From IMG/VR virus record IMGVR_UViG_2713897161_000007: a DNA stretch of 26,780 nt. One strand, 5' to 3'. Below, in pieces: positions 4,596 to 11,340 of this stretch (position 1 is the first letter of the stretch; every line of letters begins with the position of its first letter). This stretch comes from a virus (taxonomy: Duplodnaviria; Heunggongvirae; Uroviricota; Caudoviricetes). The position numbers and the translations under genes were made by a program. The notes beneath the pieces are model-generated. The model worked only from the letters and a program-made list of their open reading frames with translations. It ran no database searches and was not told the DNA's origin.

Positions 4596-4985
4596 ATGAT
4601 TGACGCTCATGACTTCACAAGATGGGTGCGCACACAGGACACCCGTCTGGCTCCCGTTCTTCAGGGATTATTTGATCTCTACATCCGTGGTCGTGACAAC
4701 AGAGCACGCACCACAAAACCGGAGAATGCAGACACCCTTTATTTCACAGTAGACGACTGCTACCGCGTGGACTTCACACCACACGGGCTGGCGTTGCACT
4801 GCCTGACACCACACGGCGAATCACTGCTGGCGTATTACGACTCCCCGGCCTCCATATTTGCGGCAATGCTGGCGCATCGCACTGCTGGCGGGTGTGCCTC
4901 GCTGAGTGAATACTCCGCTGAATTTAACCGCCTTTCCGCCCTCTTCTCACAGGAGTGGCAGCGCGTGACGGGATACCAGCCATGA
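4596..4985 (+). CDS. Hypothetical protein immediately upstream of replication gene A
   Basis: 129-aa ORF; its stop overlaps the A start (ATGA at 4982-4985). Confidence 0.5.
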   Translation: MIDAHDFTRWVRTQDTRLAPVLQGLFDLYIRGRDNRARTTKPENADTLYFTVDDCYRVDFTPHGLALHCLTPHGESLLAYYDSPASIFAAMLAHRTAGGCASLSEYSAEFNRLSALFSQEWQRVTGYQP

Positions 4986-7822
4986 GTGCGTTTGCATGGA
5001 GCTGGAATGAACCACGGCCAGCCATTGATCCGGCCAGATTTACGGAGCGCAGGCAGGAAACTGAAACCGACCTGCAACGCGCCATCCGTTACTACCTTGA
5101 GGCAAACAAAAGGGCACAGGAAGAACAGGAAGCGAAGGAAGAAGCCTTTTTCGCACAATCCACCGTGGGTAAAAAACTCATGGCATCCCTTGAGGAAGCC
5201 GGACAGCGTGAAAAGCTGGCACAAAGCATCATCAGCAAGCGTCAGGCAACAGAACAAGACCCGGTGGCCCGTGCTTTTGCCACACTGAAGGTGCTTCCCG
5301 TTTATCTGCGTGAACCTCTGAGCCGCCACCTCTCTTTTCTGCGCAAGAAGCAGGAAGCCGATCGTCAGAAAGGCAAAAAGAGCTGGCAGGCTGAACGCTA
5401 CGCGCGCGGAACCCTGCGCAAAATATTCGAACGTCTGGACCGCACCGACAGCCGCTGGCTGACACCGGGCTATCGCTCCCTTGCCGGACGCGAACGCCTG
5501 GACGATTTGCTTTACCTGCCGCAGCTCAACAAACACCAGATACAGACGCTGGCCACCATGACGGCGGCGATGTTCAGTGGCACTTTTGAAAAACTCTGCG
5601 ATGGCTTTGGCGCGACCGATGGCGAGCTGACCATGGATGTAACGCTGAAGGCGTATCAGATGCTGGCCCGCATGGCGTTACACCTGCACGCTATGCCTCC
5701 ACATTATGACGCTCTGACAACAGACAAAGACCGGAGGAATGAACCGGACACGGAGCTGCTGCCGGGCGCAATCCTTCGCCTGACCTGTGCGGAATGGTGG
5801 AAACGCAAACTGTGGCTGTTACGTTGCGAGTGGAGAGAAGAACAACTCCGCGCCGCCTGTCTGGTTTCCAGAAAAACATCACCCTATCTGAGCCAGGACG
5901 CGTTAAGCGAGTTTCGCGCACAGCGCGAGAAAACACGCGATTTCCTGAAAAGTTTCATGCTGGAAAACGAAGACGGGTTCACGATTGATCTCGAGACAGT
6001 GTATTACGCGGGAGTAAGTAACCCGATTCACCGTAAGGCAGAAATGATGGCCACCATGAAGGGGCTGGAACTTCTGGCCGAAGCCCGTGGCGACAGAGCG
6101 GTGTTTCTGACTGTCACCTGCCCGTCAAAATACCACGCCACAACAGAGAACGGTCATCCGAATCCCAAATGGAACGGGGCCACCATGCGCGACTCCAGCG
6201 ATTACCTGGTTAACACGTTTTTTGCGGCGGTCCGCAAGAAACTGAACCGCGACGGCCTGCGCTGGTATGGCATCCGCACGGTGGAGCCTCACCATGACGG
6301 CACCGTGCACTGGCATATGATGGTCTTTGCTCATCCGGAAGAAATCGACACCATTGTGTCCCACACCCGCGATATTGCCATTCAGGAAGACCGCCACGAG
6401 CTGGGCAATGATATTACTCCGCGCTTTAAGGTGGAGTATGTCGACGGCTCAAAAGGCACGCCAACCAGCTACATCGCCACCTACATCGGAAAGAACCTGG
6501 ACAGCCGCGCCGTGGATGGCATCGACCCGAAAACGGGCAAGCCACGCGTTGACCACGAAACCGGAAAATCAATGGCCGAGAGCGTGGAACGCGCCATCGG
6601 CTGGGCACGCCTTCACCGGGTCCGCCAGTTCCAGTTCTTTGGCATCCCCTCCCGTCAGGTATGGCGTGAACTCCGCCGCCTTGCCAGCCAGATGGCACGC
6701 AACCCGGAAGGCCCACAACGGCTGAAGGATGATGCAATGGATGCGGTACTCGCTGCCGCTGATGCCGGATGTTTTGCCACCTACATTGAAAAACAGGGTG
6801 GCGTACTTGTTCCGCGCAAGGACTACCTGATTCGCACAGCCTACGACCTCGCAGATGAGCTGAACGATTACGGCGAACAGAGTGTACAGATTTACGGGAT
6901 CTGGTCGCCATTCATCGGGGAATCCTCCCGTGTGTGCACGCATCCGGATAACTGGAAGCTGGTAAGACGTAAACCGGAAGCGGAAGACAGCGCCCGCGAA
7001 AATGGTTTTGACCTTCAGGGCGGCCCTGCCGCCCCTTGGACTCGTGGCAATAACTGTCCCCGTGTACAGGAAACAGGCAACAACGGGACAGAACAGCCGG
7101 AAGAACGGCCAGCACCGTGGCCGCAGCTTCCTGACGGCGTTGAAGTAAATGAATGGATGCGCTCACTGAAACGGCACGAACGCCGGGCGCTGATGCGTTC
7201 GCTTCGTGACAAACAGGCAAAAAACAGCAGCGATGAAATGCAGAACTGGACACAGAGCCGCAAACAGCAGCGGCCTTTGCCTGATAACCACGAGTTACTC
7301 GCTAAAGAATGGCGGGAGTCTGCTGAATCTCTCGGCCTGCATATCGGTGAACAACAGATGCAGCACCTGTTACGGGGCGGCAGTCTGTACGTTGACGGCA
7401 GCATCATTGCACCGCAGGGATTTGAAATTGTACGCAAACCGGATACCCGCCCGGACAGCCGAATCACGCAGCTCTGGCAGCGTCTGAGCCGTAATCATGG
7501 CGTAAGCAGCACGGAGATCCGCCATAACCCGGTCGCCAGCTATCTGGCACAGCTGGGGGCATCAGACCCTGAAGCCGCCGCACGCCTGGCATCCACACTT
7601 CAGCAGGACCAGAACACCATGAAAACACCCGTTACCGTGCTTTCTGACATGCTGCGCGCCATCCGCGACGCAGAGCACGCACAGAGAATCAGTGAAACCA
7701 CTGAACGCGCCAGCCGCAAAGCAGACCTGCTGCGGGGTGGCCTGACCAGTGGAAACAAAAAACAGACAGAAACGGGACTCACGAATCCCGTAAATGAGCA
7801 AAAAACGCGCAGCGATATATGA
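4982..7822 (+). CDS. A: Rolling-circle replication initiator (HUH endonuclease), P2 gene A homologue
   Basis: HUH motif in TVHWHMMVF and paired catalytic tyrosines in YIATYIGK. Position matches P2 A. Start at 4982 or 4955. Confidence 0.85.
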   Translation: MSAFAWSWNEPRPAIDPARFTERRQETETDLQRAIRYYLEANKRAQEEQEAKEEAFFAQSTVGKKLMASLEEAGQREKLAQSIISKRQATEQDPVARAFATLKVLPVYLREPLSRHLSFLRKKQEADRQKGKKSWQAERYARGTLRKIFERLDRTDSRWLTPGYRSLAGRERLDDLLYLPQLNKHQIQTLATMTAAMFSGTFEKLCDGFGATDGELTMDVTLKAYQMLARMALHLHAMPPHYDALTTDKDRRNEPDTELLPGAILRLTCAEWWKRKLWLLRCEWREEQLRAACLVSRKTSPYLSQDALSEFRAQREKTRDFLKSFMLENEDGFTIDLETVYYAGVSNPIHRKAEMMATMKGLELLAEARGDRAVFLTVTCPSKYHATTENGHPNPKWNGATMRDSSDYLVNTFFAAVRKKLNRDGLRWYGIRTVEPHHDGTVHWHMMVFAHPEEIDTIVSHTRDIAIQEDRHELGNDITPRFKVEYVDGSKGTPTSYIATYIGKNLDSRAVDGIDPKTGKPRVDHETGKSMAESVERAIGWARLHRVRQFQFFGIPSRQVWRELRRLASQMARNPEGPQRLKDDAMDAVLAAADAGCFATYIEKQGGVLVPRKDYLIRTAYDLADELNDYGEQSVQIYGIWSPFIGESSRVCTHPDNWKLVRRKPEAEDSARENGFDLQGGPAAPWTRGNNCPRVQETGNNGTEQPEERPAPWPQLPDGVEVNEWMRSLKRHERRALMRSLRDKQAKNSSDEMQNWTQSRKQQRPLPDNHELLAKEWRESAESLGLHIGEQQMQHLLRGGSLYVDGSIIAPQGFEIVRKPDTRPDSRITQLWQRLSRNHGVSSTEIRHNPVASYLAQLGASDPEAAARLASTLQQDQNTMKTPVTVLSDMLRAIRDAEHAQRISETTERASRKADLLRGGLTSGNKKQTETGLTNPVNEQKTRSDI

Positions 7823-7898: not shown

Positions 7899-8858
7899 AT
7901 GAAAATTTACATCGACGACGGCTCCACCAACATCAAGCTGGCATGGACTGAGAACGGCGAACGCCGCAACGCCATCAGCCCGAACAGCTTCAAGTCGGAA
8001 TGGTCTGCGCCGTTCGGTGGCTCGCAGCCTGCTAACTACATGCTTGATGGCGTGCGCTATGGTTTTGATCCGGTCAGCGATCGCTTTGTCCAGACGACCG
8101 ACACGCAATACCAGTACAGCGATGTGAATGTCATTGCCATTCATCACGCGCTGGTCAAATCAGACATCACGCCACAGGAAGTGGATGTGGTTGTTACCCT
8201 GCCACTGAGCGAATATTTCGACACAAACGCACAGCCGGACATGGCCAACATCAACCGCAAAAAAGCGAACGTCATGCGCCCGGTGGAGTACCAGAACGGC
8301 GAAGCATTCACTATCCGTAACGTACGGGTTATGCCTGAATCCATTCCGGCTGGCTTTAAAGCACTGGCTGACATGAGTCCGTTTGAATCCCTGCTGATTG
8401 TGGATTTGGGCGGAACCACGCTGGATGTGGCAAAGGTTCAGGGGCAACTGGCAGGTATCAGCCAGGTGTTTTGCGATCCACACGTAGGCGTTTCTCTTAT
8501 GGCCGATGCCGTACTGTCGGTGATGGCCACTAACGGTATGCGCACCAGTCACCACATCGCCAATACCATTATCGAACATCGCCATAATGAAGCCTGGCTG
8601 CGCCAGCACATCCACAATGACGCGCATTACGCCAGCCTGATGGCGGTTATTCGTGAAAAGGAAGAAACACTGAAACAACGCGTGATCCGCGCGCTGGCGG
8701 TTTTTTCGGGTTACGGGCGGGTGATGGTTGTCGGTGGCGGGGCGGAGATTGTGGCACCCGCTATCCGCGAAGCCTGCGGAGTTAATGCGACTTTCATCGC
8801 GGACGGGGTGCCACAGTTTGCTCTGGTTAATGGGCTGTACGCAATGGACAAGGAGTAA
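7899..8858 (+). CDS. parM: ParM/StbA-family actin-like ATPase
   Basis: 319-aa ORF. N-terminus MKIYIDDGSTNIKLAW...ISPNSFKSEW and YSDVNVIAIHHAL match the plasmid R1 ParM signature. RBS AAGGA 8 nt upstream. Confidence 0.8.
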   Translation: MKIYIDDGSTNIKLAWTENGERRNAISPNSFKSEWSAPFGGSQPANYMLDGVRYGFDPVSDRFVQTTDTQYQYSDVNVIAIHHALVKSDITPQEVDVVVTLPLSEYFDTNAQPDMANINRKKANVMRPVEYQNGEAFTIRNVRVMPESIPAGFKALADMSPFESLLIVDLGGTTLDVAKVQGQLAGISQVFCDPHVGVSLMADAVLSVMATNGMRTSHHIANTIIEHRHNEAWLRQHIHNDAHYASLMAVIREKEETLKQRVIRALAVFSGYGRVMVVGGGAEIVAPAIREACGVNATFIADGVPQFALVNGLYAMDKE

Positions 8859-8862
8859 ACCA

Positions 8863-9174
8863 ATGACGACACCAACCAGACGGATAAGTTTCTATCTGAA
8901 GCCCGCCGCCGTCAAGAACGAAGGAGAAGCATGCGCCTGGCTGGACAGCCTTACACCAGAAGCCCGCAAAAGCGGCCAACGCGTGGCTTTTCTGGCCGGG
9001 CTGGCACTTCTGAAGACGAATCCGGCAGAGGCTTACCGACTGGCCGCATGGGCTGATGATGAGATGTTACCTGTGACACAAATCAGCTCAAAAAAGTTTG
9101 AAGCACAGTCTGCACCAGTGGCTAAGATAACCAGCCAGATGGCTGGGAATATCCGGGCGTTATTTCCTGAGTAA
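8863..9174 (+). CDS. parR: ParR-like ribbon-helix-helix centromere-binding protein
   Basis: 104-aa product from ATG 8863. RISFYLKPA and RVAFLAGLAL resemble R1 ParR (TIAFKLNP, RAALTAGLAL). Directly follows parM. Confidence 0.65.
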   Translation: MTTPTRRISFYLKPAAVKNEGEACAWLDSLTPEARKSGQRVAFLAGLALLKTNPAEAYRLAAWADDEMLPVTQISSKKFEAQSAPVAKITSQMAGNIRALFPE

Positions 9175-9244
9175 AAGCATCTGCGCGAAAAATGCTCACG
9201 TTTATAGAGACAGTATCATTCCATTTGGCACACTTACTTCAATA

Positions 9245-9331
9245 ATCGATCTGTTAAACAAATAGATTGTCTATTATCTATCGATTAAAACGATCAATTA
9301 TCTTGACAGTAATGTGCCTTTTTGTAAGATC
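9245..9331 (+). promoter_or_regulatory. Nested palindromes (AATCGAT...ATCGATT; TAGAT...ATCTA) directly upstream of a sigma70-like promoter (TTGACA-16-TAAGAT)
   Basis: TTGACA at 9303-9308, TAAGAT at 9325-9330; inverted repeats at 9245-9286 abut the -35. Confidence 0.35.
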
Positions 9332-9363
9332 GTTCGCATTGTGAGCGACAAGATAATTGCGCG

Positions 9364-9515
9364 GCATTGTCCATGCAAAACGCCCCAATAGCAGCAACTA
9401 TTGGGGCGTAAAACTCGGTCGGACTCACTTAACCTGATATGCGTGCCTTCCGAAGTAAATCAAAATGTGCGTCGTATATTTTATTGCTTACACGCACCTC
9501 TGTAAAGGCACGCAT
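9364..9515 (+). promoter_or_regulatory. Structured 5' leader or small RNA: hairpin CGCCCCAATAG/CTATTGGGGCG, then a long-range stem ATGCGTGCCTT/AAGGCACGCAT enclosing an inner hairpin and followed by a T-run
   Basis: Inverted repeats read directly: 9383-9410 and 9438-9510, then ATTTTT. Two short uORFs (11 and 29 codons) lie in the leader. Confidence 0.3.
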
Positions 9516-9538
9516 ATTTTTCCTATGAGGTAAATAAA

Positions 9539-9808
9539 GTGCGGGCTAAAACAGGTATTTGCAAGAACCCTCATCGTTATAATCCAACATTTCTGTCTCT
9601 CCCTGAATATCAAGGACAAGAAGGTCGGCACAAATGCGCTGCCTGTGCTTTTGAGCTAGGCATAAAAGATGCGCTTGAAGGACGCGCTATGGCTCAGAAT
9701 GATTTAGTTTTAGCTAACATTCCGTTTAGCCAGGCTGGAACTGTAAGGCACAGAGATGCCTATGAAGCATATGTTCGTGGTTGGCGATTAATAAACAGCA
9801 ACAATTGA
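9539..9808 (+). CDS. Hypothetical 89-aa protein with Cys/His cluster (possible zinc-binding), cargo in the A-cos slot
   Basis: GTG start with GAGG RBS 8 nt upstream. C-x3-H and H-x-C-x2-C spacing (ICKNPH...HKCAACAFE). Followed by an intrinsic terminator. Confidence 0.5.
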   Translation: MRAKTGICKNPHRYNPTFLSLPEYQGQEGRHKCAACAFELGIKDALEGRAMAQNDLVLANIPFSQAGTVRHRDAYEAYVRGWRLINSNN

Positions 9809-9816
9809 TACTTTTG

Positions 9817-9840
9817 AAGCGCCGATAAGGCGCTTTTTTT
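9817..9840 (+). terminator. Rho-independent terminator
   Basis: Stem AAGCGCC/GGCGCTT with loop GATA, then TTTTTTT. Confidence 0.6.
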
Positions 9841-10293
9841 GTTTGCACGATAGTGCACAAGTTTGCACAATTTTTTTGAACGACTTTTTGTACTTCCGGC
9901 CCGCGTGGTGGCTGGATCCGTCAAGGATCCGTACGTGCACAAAAAAACGCGTTTTTTCTGCGCGCAGGTGACGGGGGAACAGCCCGCGTTTCAGGGGGTA
10001 AATAGCATCCCCTGAACGATGTCGCAGCGACACAACAGAATGGCTGTATTTCTCACGCTGAGCGTGAAAAAGACGTGAGGGCTTTTGATTTGATGGGTGG
10101 CAGATAAGGCCGTCAAAATCGCACTGAGGCGGCGAGAACATGCAGTCAACGCGGTGGGATTGCGTAAGAGTCTGACCGCCGATGATGACAATAAGCAGAA
10201 AAGCGTCGTGAAATTATCTGATTGATACAGGAGCTGGAGAGTCGGGGCATAAATTTTTTATGCCCCGGCGAAGCAGCAGACAAGCGAAGCGCG

Positions 10294-11340
10294 TCAGGAT
10301 GTGGGCTGGGTATCTAGCAGTGCGTAAGGGTTAAAGCGGATCACCTCTTCGCCAAGCCAGTCATTGATGTGCTTCATGGCCTCCATGACGGGCATCAGCT
10401 CGTTAATTGCGTAAACCCGCGCGGCCTTCTCCACATCACCAAACGCACTTTTTTCGCCCGGCATCGCCCCCATCAGTTGCGGCGGAACGCGGTGCGCAGC
10501 CAGCACATCATCACGGGATGCCGCCTTAACATTCATGAACTCATCCTTTGCAGTGATCTGCTGGAACGGCAAAATTTGCACACCTTCTTTGCCCCCGTTG
10601 GGCGCATGGATGAGTACGTTTTTAAACGCACCACCACCACGCGCGCCCTGTAACGTTTCTTTCAGGGAGTCCATGCTTTCGCGGTTTACCTGCGCTGCAC
10701 CGATGTAGATGATGCACCCGGCGTGGGATCCGTTGTCGTAGTACAGTTTTCTGAACATGTCCGCCGAATGAGAAAGGCTGGCCGAGAGTAATGCGCCAAG
10801 ATATTCCGGCATGCCGTAGATTTCCTGGTTAATATCCGGATTCATCAGGTGGCACACTTTGCCAGGGCGAAACTGGAACGCGTCCTTGCCATCCTGCACA
10901 TACCACCATGATTCAAGATCGCTTCCGCGTCGCATGTATTTCGCCAGGGCGTGCCGTAATTTAAGCGGTTCGCCGAGCATATTGCTTCTAAGCTCAAGGA
11001 ATGCGTTACCGAACACAAACCAGTCCAGCGCCAGCGCCGAGAAATCCTGCCGGGAAAGCAGCGGGTGCGGGATGTAGCAACCGAGTAATACATTGCGCTT
11101 AAAGTAAAGCGCAGACTGATGCCAGGACGTTTGCCGGGCTGCTCTTGCCAGACCGTACCAGTCCACCGGGGTTTCATACCACCGTCCGTTATCAGCACAG
11201 TACATATTGTCCAGCAGGTCATGCCCGGTCAGGCGATAAGGACCATCAAATGTGAATGCACTGAGCGATGATTCTTTCCTGAGCGCATCAGCGAGATCAA
11301 TGCGTGAACTCATGCGCACTTTTTTATTTTTTCTGCTCAT
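10294..11340 (-). CDS. Q: Portal protein, P2 gpQ homologue
   Basis: 348-aa ORF immediately downstream of terminase with overlapping stop/start; size and position match P2 Q. Confidence 0.85.
   Translation of the reverse strand: MSRKNKKVRMSSRIDLADALRKESSLSAFTFDGPYRLTGHDLLDNMYCADNGRWYETPVDWYGLARAARQTSWHQSALYFKRNVLLGCYIPHPLLSRQDFSALALDWFVFGNAFLELRSNMLGEPLKLRHALAKYMRRGSDLESWWYVQDGKDAFQFRPGKVCHLMNPDINQEIYGMPEYLGALLSASLSHSADMFRKLYYDNGSHAGCIIYIGAAQVNRESMDSLKETLQGARGGGAFKNVLIHAPNGGKEGVQILPFQQITAKDEFMNVKAASRDDVLAAHRVPPQLMGAMPGEKSAFGDVEKAARVYAINELMPVMEAMKHINDWLGEEVIRFNPYALLDTQPTS

Follow-up and report, generated by a model that had tools for sequence, protein, structure and literature searches.

A portable temperate-phage cassette pairs a GATC-linked candidate zinc protein with a predicted cis-antisense RNA

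A cargo cassette shared by temperate phages

The 26,780-nt viral sequence analyzed here (IMG/VR record IMGVR_UViG_2713897161_000007, hereafter the window) is an Escherichia coli prophage of the P88-like type (Xuanwuvirus, Peduoviridae, P2 family). This study concerns the cargo cassette, or 'moron', that occupies positions 9175..9836 of its plus strand, with a block of nested palindromes, a promoter, a long folded leader and a gene for an 89-amino-acid (aa) protein with a putative zinc site. It lies between parR (8863-9174), itself preceded by parM (7899-8858), and the cos/portal side of the P2-family hotspot, where the portal gene (10294-11340, minus strand) is found, with the terminase gene next in gene order. 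In P2-like phages the gpA-gpQ interval has been documented as a hotspot of diversity, with cargo and defense genes (bioRxiv 10.1101/2021.01.21.427644). Phage P88 has parM-parR and portal genes as in the window with a different cargo, and since its similarity to the window picks up again only at ~9829, the insert can be delimited as ~9175-9830, matching the region under study. Similarly, phage PhiR44_2 shares parMR and carries other cargo directly downstream. Of 5426 complete E. coli genomes, 166 carry the 726 bases around the region at 95-100% identity, in each case on the chromosome and with O157:H7 strains among the carriers, in which the open reading frame (ORF) is annotated solely as a 'hypothetical protein'.

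The E. coli variants of the cassette all sit after parMR. Homologs of the protein at 51-63% identity are present in other phage types and at other cargo positions: in the Salmonella P22-like phage BIS08P22 the gene lies downstream of cI (the rexAB position), and in the Providencia phage PSTCR7lys between Q and the lysis genes. A further 160 loci came from scans of genome and viral collections. Set against ~30 divergent relatives, the region proves to be one conserved cassette of ~650 bp, present in P2-like, P22-like and lambdoid prophages of E. coli, Salmonella, Providencia/Proteus, Yersinia, Rahnella, Pantoea, Gilliamella and Serratia. All the Enterobacterales and Orbaceae loci examined have one and the same architecture over the ~300 nt that precede the gene, often with sequences that can no longer be aligned; the groups compared were two from E. 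coli and one each from Salmonella, Enterobacter, Pantoea, Yersinia, Rahnella, Providencia/Proteus and Gilliamella. These comparisons identify the region as an accessory-gene cassette that is autonomous and passes from one temperate phage of Enterobacterales to another. The literature searched held no description of the cassette or of the protein family, the sole relevant paper being that on the P2 gpA-gpQ hotspot.

Convergent promoters and a predicted antisense RNA

The TTGACA-16-TAAGAT promoter reported in the initial annotation is present on the plus strand at 9303..9330 (P+: TTGACA at 9303-9308, a 16-nt spacer and TAAGAT at 9325-9330; 10/12 matches to consensus), with a predicted start at ~9337. 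The promoter scan by itself does not exceed chance (2 sites found, where shuffles lead one to expect 2.1), and it is conservation in relatives that speaks for P+: an equivalent is found at -200 to -236 from the start codon in all 22 representative loci. The same scan recovered a second promoter, which the initial annotation had missed, on the opposite strand within the leader. This antisense promoter (P-, 9506..9478, minus strand) comprises TTTACA at 9506..9501, a 17-nt spacer and TAAAAT at 9483..9478, again with 10/12 matches and with a predicted start at ~9471. A minus-strand TTTAC(A/T)-17-TAnnnT element is present in 29/29 representative loci, 28-47 nt before the start codon; its spacer is exactly 17 nt in every one of them, even as the spacer sequences are wholly different between groups. 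A Serratia homolog with 46% identity has TTTACA-18-TACAAT at the equivalent place, in a locus that went undetected by the covariance model described below. P+ and P- are convergent in all 22 loci in which both were compared, with predicted starts 101-111 nt apart, and 134 nt apart in the window.

P- is predicted to give rise to a cis-antisense small RNA of ~97-100 nt (9471 -> ~9372, minus strand), organized as a 5' region, stem-loop 1, a UUUU linker, stem-loop 2 (9409..9380) and a UUUGCAUG tail, and folding more stably than expected (z = -3.8). In the relatives the corresponding RNA measures 70-79 nt and is built alike, with an AU-rich stem-loop after a short, single-stranded 5' end and, past a U-rich linker, a GC-rich stem-loop and a pyrimidine tail. 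The GC-rich hairpin (9380..9409) is its presumed intrinsic terminator. It had earlier been described as a perfect 11-bp hairpin of the sense leader; the inverted-repeat search finds it perfect, at a length of 12 bp (9380-9391 / 9398-9409), with its T-rich side on the minus strand. There it forms 13 bp around a 4-nt loop and is followed by the T-rich tail TTTGCATG, whereas the plus strand continues as AAAACTCG. The hairpin is 87-97% identical in two variants of the cassette (L121 and L122). Its minus-strand tail, UUUGCAUG or UUUCCCUUA, falls below the threshold of the terminator scan, which did not list the hairpin owing to its short T-tail.

The 5' end of the antisense RNA in most groups is a short palindrome, GAGAUCUC, GUGAUCAC or GAGCUC. 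As DNA (GAGATCTC, GTGATCAC or GAGCTC; e.g. L004, 3908-3922), this palindrome usually contains GATC, and being a palindrome it is therefore also present in the sense leader; the window variant is devoid of it. A further variant (L148, 2761-2902, minus strand) has an insertion of ~66 nt in the loop of stem-loop 1 and still gives an end-to-end model match of 40.3 bits. In BIS08P22, an ORF annotated as 'hypothetical protein' between cI and the homolog (L004, 3665-3901) overlaps the cassette promoter, the 5' stem-loop and the antisense terminator, and is probably a spurious call.

The structure of this RNA was examined with a covariance model seeded from four equal-length Salmonella-type sequences. 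It returned full-length minus-strand matches, at the equivalent position and with E-values of 1e-5 to 1e-25, in the second E. coli group, Gilliamella, Yersinia, Rahnella, Pantoea and Enterobacter; upstream of the non-enterobacterial homologs it found none, save for one weak, unrelated match in a Chitinophaga locus. When the matches were re-aligned to the model, 94.5% of the cells in the two helices were paired, and 17 of the 22 pairs showed compensatory (double) changes. The covariation score of 0.56 compares with 0.19 in shuffles, none of 500 shuffles reaching it, and controls with a slid register gave 44-56% pairing. G-U cells outnumber A-C cells by 88 to 7, and thus the minus strand is favored as the folded strand. 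RNAalifold predicted no pairs on a plain MAFFT alignment of the antisense RNAs, in which the hairpins are misaligned. For the Providencia/Proteus, Serratia and window variants the architecture rests on promoter geometry and folding.

The folded leader of the sense transcript

The predicted 5' leader of the mRNA (9337..9538, plus strand, ~200 nt) holds the complement of the antisense RNA, followed by a long-range stem, a T-run and a Shine-Dalgarno (SD) sequence. In line with the highly structured leader described in the initial annotation, it folds more stably than chance (-68.2 kcal/mol, z = -4.4), with 0/200 shuffles equaling it; in the fold computed for its whole length, the SD is base-paired to another part of it. 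The long-range stem is a perfect 13 bp (9437-9449 / 9505-9517) enclosing a GTGCGT...ACGCAC hairpin, and downstream of it come TTTTT (9518-9522), the SD GAGG (9527-9530) and the GTG start (9539), as had been noted. The two upstream ORFs (uORFs) called in the leader also exist (9373-9411, 12 aa; 9439-9528, 29 aa), but inspection by eye found no counterpart of either in the leaders of other groups. What recurs in most groups is an SD and start codon that are more strongly paired than in shuffles, buried in a hairpin just 3' of the -35 element of P-; in the other groups these hairpins are without a following U-run. Beyond the ORF, the mRNA would end at an intrinsic terminator called by the terminator scan (~9816..9841, plus strand; GAAGCGCC-GATAA-GGCGCTTT followed by TTTTGTTT).

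The Rfam search of 8700-10400 gave no family at threshold; at E <= 10 the matches were sub-threshold and to the hairpin alone, namely sar (RF00262; 22.0 bits against a gathering value of 43), ctRNA_pGA1 (RF00236; 22.1 against 45) and Spot 42 (RF00021; 19.4 against 80). A gathering-level Rfam scan of six related loci found just one tRNA.

GATC sites and the palindromic candidate operator

GATC tetramers recur around P+. In the window, one (9328-9331) overlaps the -10 element (TAAGATC) and another (9292-9295) sits 7 nt upstream of the -35 element. A GATC 5-7 nt upstream of the -35 is present in 21/22 loci, and one that overlaps the -10 in the window and several other loci. Over the 22 upstream regions, which are homologous and hence not independent, there are 83 GATCs where 22.8 are expected, and they occupy recurrent positions.

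Immediately upstream of P+, as the initial annotation had recognized, lie nested palindromes with GATC and ATCGAT cores (9242..9301, GATC at 9248 and 9292). Their outer arms (9242-9267 / 9276-9301; repeats I1 and I7 of the inverted-repeat search) are 26 nt long and 73% complementary, while the 8-nt inner arms, TAATCGAT / ATCGATTA at 9243-9250 / 9280-9287, are perfect. These palindromes are the best-conserved non-coding segment across the cassette variants: the block 9237-9302 has 82-83% identity to L121 and L122, against 62-66% for the ORF and 42-58% for the leader (42% in its middle), a behavior that fits the operator-like role first suggested for them. Apart from these, a perfect 11-nt inverted repeat, CAATTATCTTG / CAAGATAATTG (9295-9305 / 9349-9359; repeat I4), brackets the core of P+, its left arm overlapping the -35 and its right arm lying at about +12 to +22; it is specific to the window variant and was not visible by eye in L120 or L122.

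A protein family associated with GATC-specific restriction-modification

The 89-aa Cys/His protein is encoded at 9539..9808 (plus strand). Its conserved residues comprise C8, H12, C33 and C36, which would form a CHCC zinc site, along with an internally duplicated Q-x-G-x-x-R-H motif (Q25/R30/H31 and Q65/R70/H71). It is hydrophilic, with neither a membrane nor a hydrophobic segment, and its AlphaFold2 model (pLDDT 90) shows two repeats of a short helix, two strands and a long helix. The statement that it could not be placed in a known family has held: Pfam, NCBIfam, PADLOC and PDB provided no match, and the one family recovered was phrog_3941, to which no function is assigned. Profile and structure searches matched no known phage regulator; those of the PDB, by sequence, profile and structure, were negative, the best Foldseek PDB match (2jrm) having an E-value of 1.9 and a probability of 0.21, and Pfam gave one sub-threshold, unrelated match. 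An RMF-like fold, raised by weak Foldseek matches and an 'AY.xGY..G' motif, was rejected on an hhalign probability of 4.5%.

The family proved to be large. A word-indexed search found just two near-identical proteins, and exhaustive and profile searches were needed to reveal it: the former returned 173 clusters at 50% identity and the latter at least 1,593 clusters at 90% identity, all 'hypothetical' and none with a Pfam domain. The domain is also fused to the C-terminus of DndB-like proteins and to WYL, and occurs, often in tandem, at the N-terminus of HNH_2 and NOV_C nuclease-type domains. Two family members (P0003, 182 aa; P0153, 187 aa) are tandem duplications of the whole ~85-aa domain, and proteins of 220-290 aa place two copies of it ahead of a nuclease-like C-terminal domain.

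Of 46 non-redundant loci outside Enterobacterales, 29 encode a D12 (Dam-class) methyltransferase (MTase), an N6_N4 MTase and/or a DpnII endonuclease within 3 kb, and 19 of these 29 carry DpnII, which is specific for GATC. The gene order in these restriction-modification (R-M) loci is often M-X-R or X-M-R, where X is the small gene, with overlapping stop and start codons; in L059, L038 and L071, for example, the homolog is directly upstream of, or overlaps, the R or M gene. Precomputed Pfam annotations of further contigs confirm the link independently, with arrangements such as N6_N4 MTase / HTH_3-X / DpnII / D12 MTase and D12 MTase-DUF6996/6997/7226-X. Phage copies, that of the window among them, stand alone: no R or M gene lies within 3 kb. 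Among the Bacteroidota (L017, L018, L062, L066, L078 and L083), the domain constitutes the C-terminal part of a DndB-like (DGQHR) protein, located between a DpnII endonuclease/D12 MTase pair and an N6_N4 MTase in what amounts to a four-gene GATC-type R-M arrangement. In one metagenomic DpnII cassette (L173, 1431-1952; L174, 2210-2731), a gene for a 70-aa HTH_3 (Xre-type, C-protein-like) protein precedes the small gene in the same orientation.

Mechanistic interpretation and alternatives

The above observations lead to the proposal, which we consider fairly probable, that the cassette carries a zinc protein of a GATC-linked family that is repressed in the lysogen by an antisense RNA and by an operator sensitive to Dam methylation, to a protein, or to both. 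P+ would produce an mRNA of ~500 nt with the ~200-nt folded leader, the ORF and the terminator. From P-, within the leader and ~40 nt upstream of the start codon, a non-coding RNA of ~100 nt would be made, with full complementarity to the mid-leader and its 3' end at the GC hairpin (9409..9380). In the lysogen this RNA may keep the protein off by forming a long duplex with the leader, with degradation as the outcome, and transcriptional interference between the face-to-face sigma-70 promoters (~134 bp apart) could add to the repression. In most variants, the hairpin that buries the SD and start codon would contribute further. Masking the antisense target in silico leaves the SD closed (accessibility the same or lower in 7/8 cases), which is weakly compatible with repression. 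By analogy with pIN and RNA-OUT of IS10, the GATC palindromes and the GATCs flanking the -35 and in the -10 of P+ may act as an operator that responds to a protein, to Dam methylation or to both, the protein possibly being the product of the cassette itself. That product most likely binds nucleic acids and modulates GATC methylation, GATC restriction or the control of either.

Several points weigh against this proposal. The antisense RNA is a prediction, as are its 3' end and the start sites of both promoters, and the T-tail of the hairpin is short (UUUG in the window, UUUCC in many relatives) and was called by the terminator scan on neither strand. The hairpins form on both strands, so that the strand assignment rests on the G-U counts, the tail and the promoter, and the covariation counts, coming from related sequences in a model-fitted alignment, lean towards structure. 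The covariance model missed the Providencia/Proteus and Serratia variants, and in the window, whose antisense RNA is divergent and lacks the 5' palindrome GAGAUCUC of most relatives, it matches the terminal hairpin alone (23.6 bits on the minus strand against 20.4 on the plus). The antisense target in the window takes in the stretch to which the SD pairs when the full leader is folded, masking that target changes the computed SD accessibility little in either direction, and repression as the direction of regulation is an assumption. As to the operator, the GATC in the -10 is absent from several relatives and the GATC enrichment was computed on non-independent sequences. On the side of the protein, the binding of nucleic acids and of GATC is a proposal and the zinc site putative, and the HTH_3 gene ahead of the small gene in one R-M setting suggests that the zinc protein is an extra component and not the controller.

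Other explanations share parts of this evidence. The same layout would be expected of a type I toxin-antitoxin (TA) system in which the protein is a toxin and the antisense RNA its labile antitoxin, a reading that adds toxicity to the above proposal and forms a special case of it; prophage loss, or the shut-off of host transcription by an infecting phage, would then release the toxin for post-segregational killing or abortive infection. A cis-antisense RNA opposite a long folded 5' untranslated region with a sequestered SD is consistent with this, as is the location in the cargo/defense hotspots of three phage types, and type I toxins that do not act at the membrane, such as SymE and RalR, exist. 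We nonetheless regard it as unlikely, because the protein is hydrophilic and its relatives are ordinary co-operonic R-M components without an antisense RNA, which argues against intrinsic toxicity. A typical toxin of this type is a hydrophobic membrane peptide of <60 aa, whereas this protein has 89 aa, no membrane segment and a conserved zinc site, and PADLOC offered no match. Alternatively, the minus-strand RNA might chiefly be a trans-acting, Hfq-type small RNA (sRNA) with host or phage mRNAs as targets, its overlap with the leader being incidental and the protein expressed independently. Its sRNA-like plan would suit such a role: a single-stranded 5' end (GAGAUCUCAAGAAAAC), highly conserved in most groups, comes first, then an AU-rich stem-loop and, beyond a U-rich linker, a terminator with a U tail. 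However, in every enterobacterial locus inspected by eye the RNA keeps a constant distance to a gene of this family, the model matches in enterobacterial loci occur upstream of this gene and nowhere else, and the 5' sequence is wholly different in the window, the second E. coli group, Providencia and Serratia, which fits a co-varying cis target better; a primarily trans-acting role is thus very unlikely.

The initial annotation had itself suggested attenuation or riboregulation, taken here as an attenuator or riboswitch in the plus-strand leader, or else a separate sRNA of ~180 nt, ending near 9515 and so taken as a plus-strand RNA that stops at the T-run 9518-9522. RNA-level control of a stand-alone cargo gene, the more general part of that view, is supported by the present comparison. 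The window variant does possess a perfect 13-bp stem followed by TTTTT just before the SD, in a leader that folds unusually well (z = -4.4). Yet this stem and T-run are confined to the window variant, and because they are without a counterpart in any other cassette group, neither a plus-strand attenuator nor the ~180-nt sRNA is the conserved logic; SD/start sequestration and the minus-strand promoter are conserved instead. The stem also closes a 55-nt loop, atypical of an intrinsic terminator, was not called by the terminator scan, and corresponds to no Rfam family at threshold, all of which makes the attenuator or plus-strand sRNA distinctly improbable. The palindromes, for their part, could belong not to the cassette but to the adjacent ParMR as its parC centromere/operator, or could be a LexA/SOS operator. 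They do lie 68 nt downstream of parR, and the E. coli cassettes invariably follow parMR. Nevertheless, P88 and PhiR44_2 combine parMR with other cargo, and the P88 sequence downstream of parR, when read, proved to be without such palindromes. Since they are missing from P88 despite its parMR, and ParR has diverged to 49-55% identity while the palindromes stay at 82-83%, the block is better explained as a cassette operator than as parC. Moreover, its proximal element (a GATC a few nucleotides upstream of the -35, with a small inverted repeat) recurs in P22-like and lambdoid cassettes that have no parMR. The LexA site suspected at 9245-9300 is not there: 9175-9340 contains no CTGT-N8-ACAG with up to one mismatch. 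Hence, an origin of the palindromes outside the cassette is hardly credible.

The repressed-cassette proposal can be taken further, albeit tentatively and with a modest chance at best of being correct: the ~85-aa CHCC domain might be a new reader or modulator of GATC sites or their methylation, the phage copy of which is under an antisense and Dam-sensitive switch and made when methylation lapses. If so, the domain in DpnII/Dam-type R-M cassettes would time or tune restriction against methylation, and in fusions with HNH or PD-(D/E)xK-like nucleases it would serve to target the nuclease. Temperate phages of enterobacteria would have acquired a lone copy of the domain. In the phages, the protein would appear only when GATC methylation lapses or transcription is perturbed, as on DNA entry, induction or superinfection, and would act on GATC restriction, Dam methylation or incoming DNA, as a new phage epigenetic sensor, anti-restriction factor or defense factor.

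Relationship to known systems and broader significance

Antisense control of phage accessory genes has precedents in sar/ant, c4/icd-ant and OOP/cII, and in RNA-OUT of IS10. The closest parallel in form is sar/ant of P22 immI (as also c4/icd-ant of P1 and OOP/cII of lambda), in which a short cis-antisense RNA from a convergent promoter terminates in a GC hairpin and has its complement in the 5' part of the mRNA that it targets. The cassette differs from this kind in that the Rfam sar model matches its hairpin alone (22 bits against a gathering value of 43), that the antisense RNA of the window covers the middle of a 200-nt leader and not the ribosome-binding site, and that its target is an unrelated zinc protein in a portable unit found in three phage lineages. 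IS10 (Tn10) has RNA-IN and RNA-OUT with face-to-face promoters and a GATC in the Dam-sensitive pIN, which couples expression to methylation. The cassette shares with it the convergent promoters, an antisense RNA directed at the mRNA 5' end and GATCs within or next to the hexamers of the sense promoter. Unlike in IS10, the product is no transposase and the methylation sensitivity of P+ is proposed by analogy; the GATC beside the -35 is nearly universal, but some relatives do not share the one that the window has on the -10.

The type I TA loci symE/symR and ralR/ralA likewise consist of a small soluble protein with an mRNA opposed by a short antisense RNA, on a prophage-borne locus. However, SymR overlaps the SD and start codon, which the cassette RNA does not, and homologs of the cassette protein are routine members of R-M operons without an antisense RNA. 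A further comparison is with the C proteins and antisense control of R-M systems (C.PvuII; the reverse promoters of EcoRI), in that homologs in other phyla hold the classical C-gene position, upstream of or overlapping DpnII or an MTase. In contrast to C proteins, this family has no helix-turn-helix, no PDB structure matches its predicted fold, some cassettes have a separate HTH_3 gene ahead of it, and its phage copies are solitary. Ral of lambda and Lar of Rac, the latter with a Cys-rich zinc-ribbon-like motif, are comparable as small phage-borne proteins; the analogy is functional alone, as no similarity was detected (Pfam), and these act on type I systems while the cassette family is linked to type II GATC systems.

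The RNA family, its link with a portable cassette and the protein family all appear to be undescribed in Rfam, Pfam, PDB and the literature searched. Thus, a predicted family of antisense sRNAs outside Rfam would accompany a portable cassette in P2-like, P22-like and lambdoid prophages of at least 8 enterobacterial genera, and a protein family of at least 1,593 clusters, which has neither a Pfam model nor a structural neighbor, has genomic company that points to the biology of GATC methylation and restriction. As the cassette is lodged in classic hotspots of lysogenic conversion and defense (gpA-gpQ, the rexAB position and the Q-lysis interval), it may affect conflicts between phages or between phages and R-M systems. 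The combination of convergent promoters, an antisense RNA and a GATC-bearing operator could also provide a compact model for methylation-coupled riboregulation.

Neighboring features

The prophage also carries, between its replication gene (a replication endonuclease, 4955-7822) and the cargo hotspot, a complete R1-type parM/parR pair (7899-9174; StbA_N/ParM and Plasmid_stab_B), which is set in a P2-family genome. Across the variants ParM is 96-98% conserved and ParR falls to 49-55% identity; no obvious iteron array is present in the 76 nt upstream of parM. Past the cassette terminator, the stretch 9840-9960 bears recurring motifs of the TTTGCAC / GTGCACA type (tttgcacgatagtgcacaagtttgcacaa ... 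gtacgtgcacaaaaaaacgcg) beside a GGATCCGTCAAGGATCC palindrome; it is common to P88-like phages and lies near the expected cos region.

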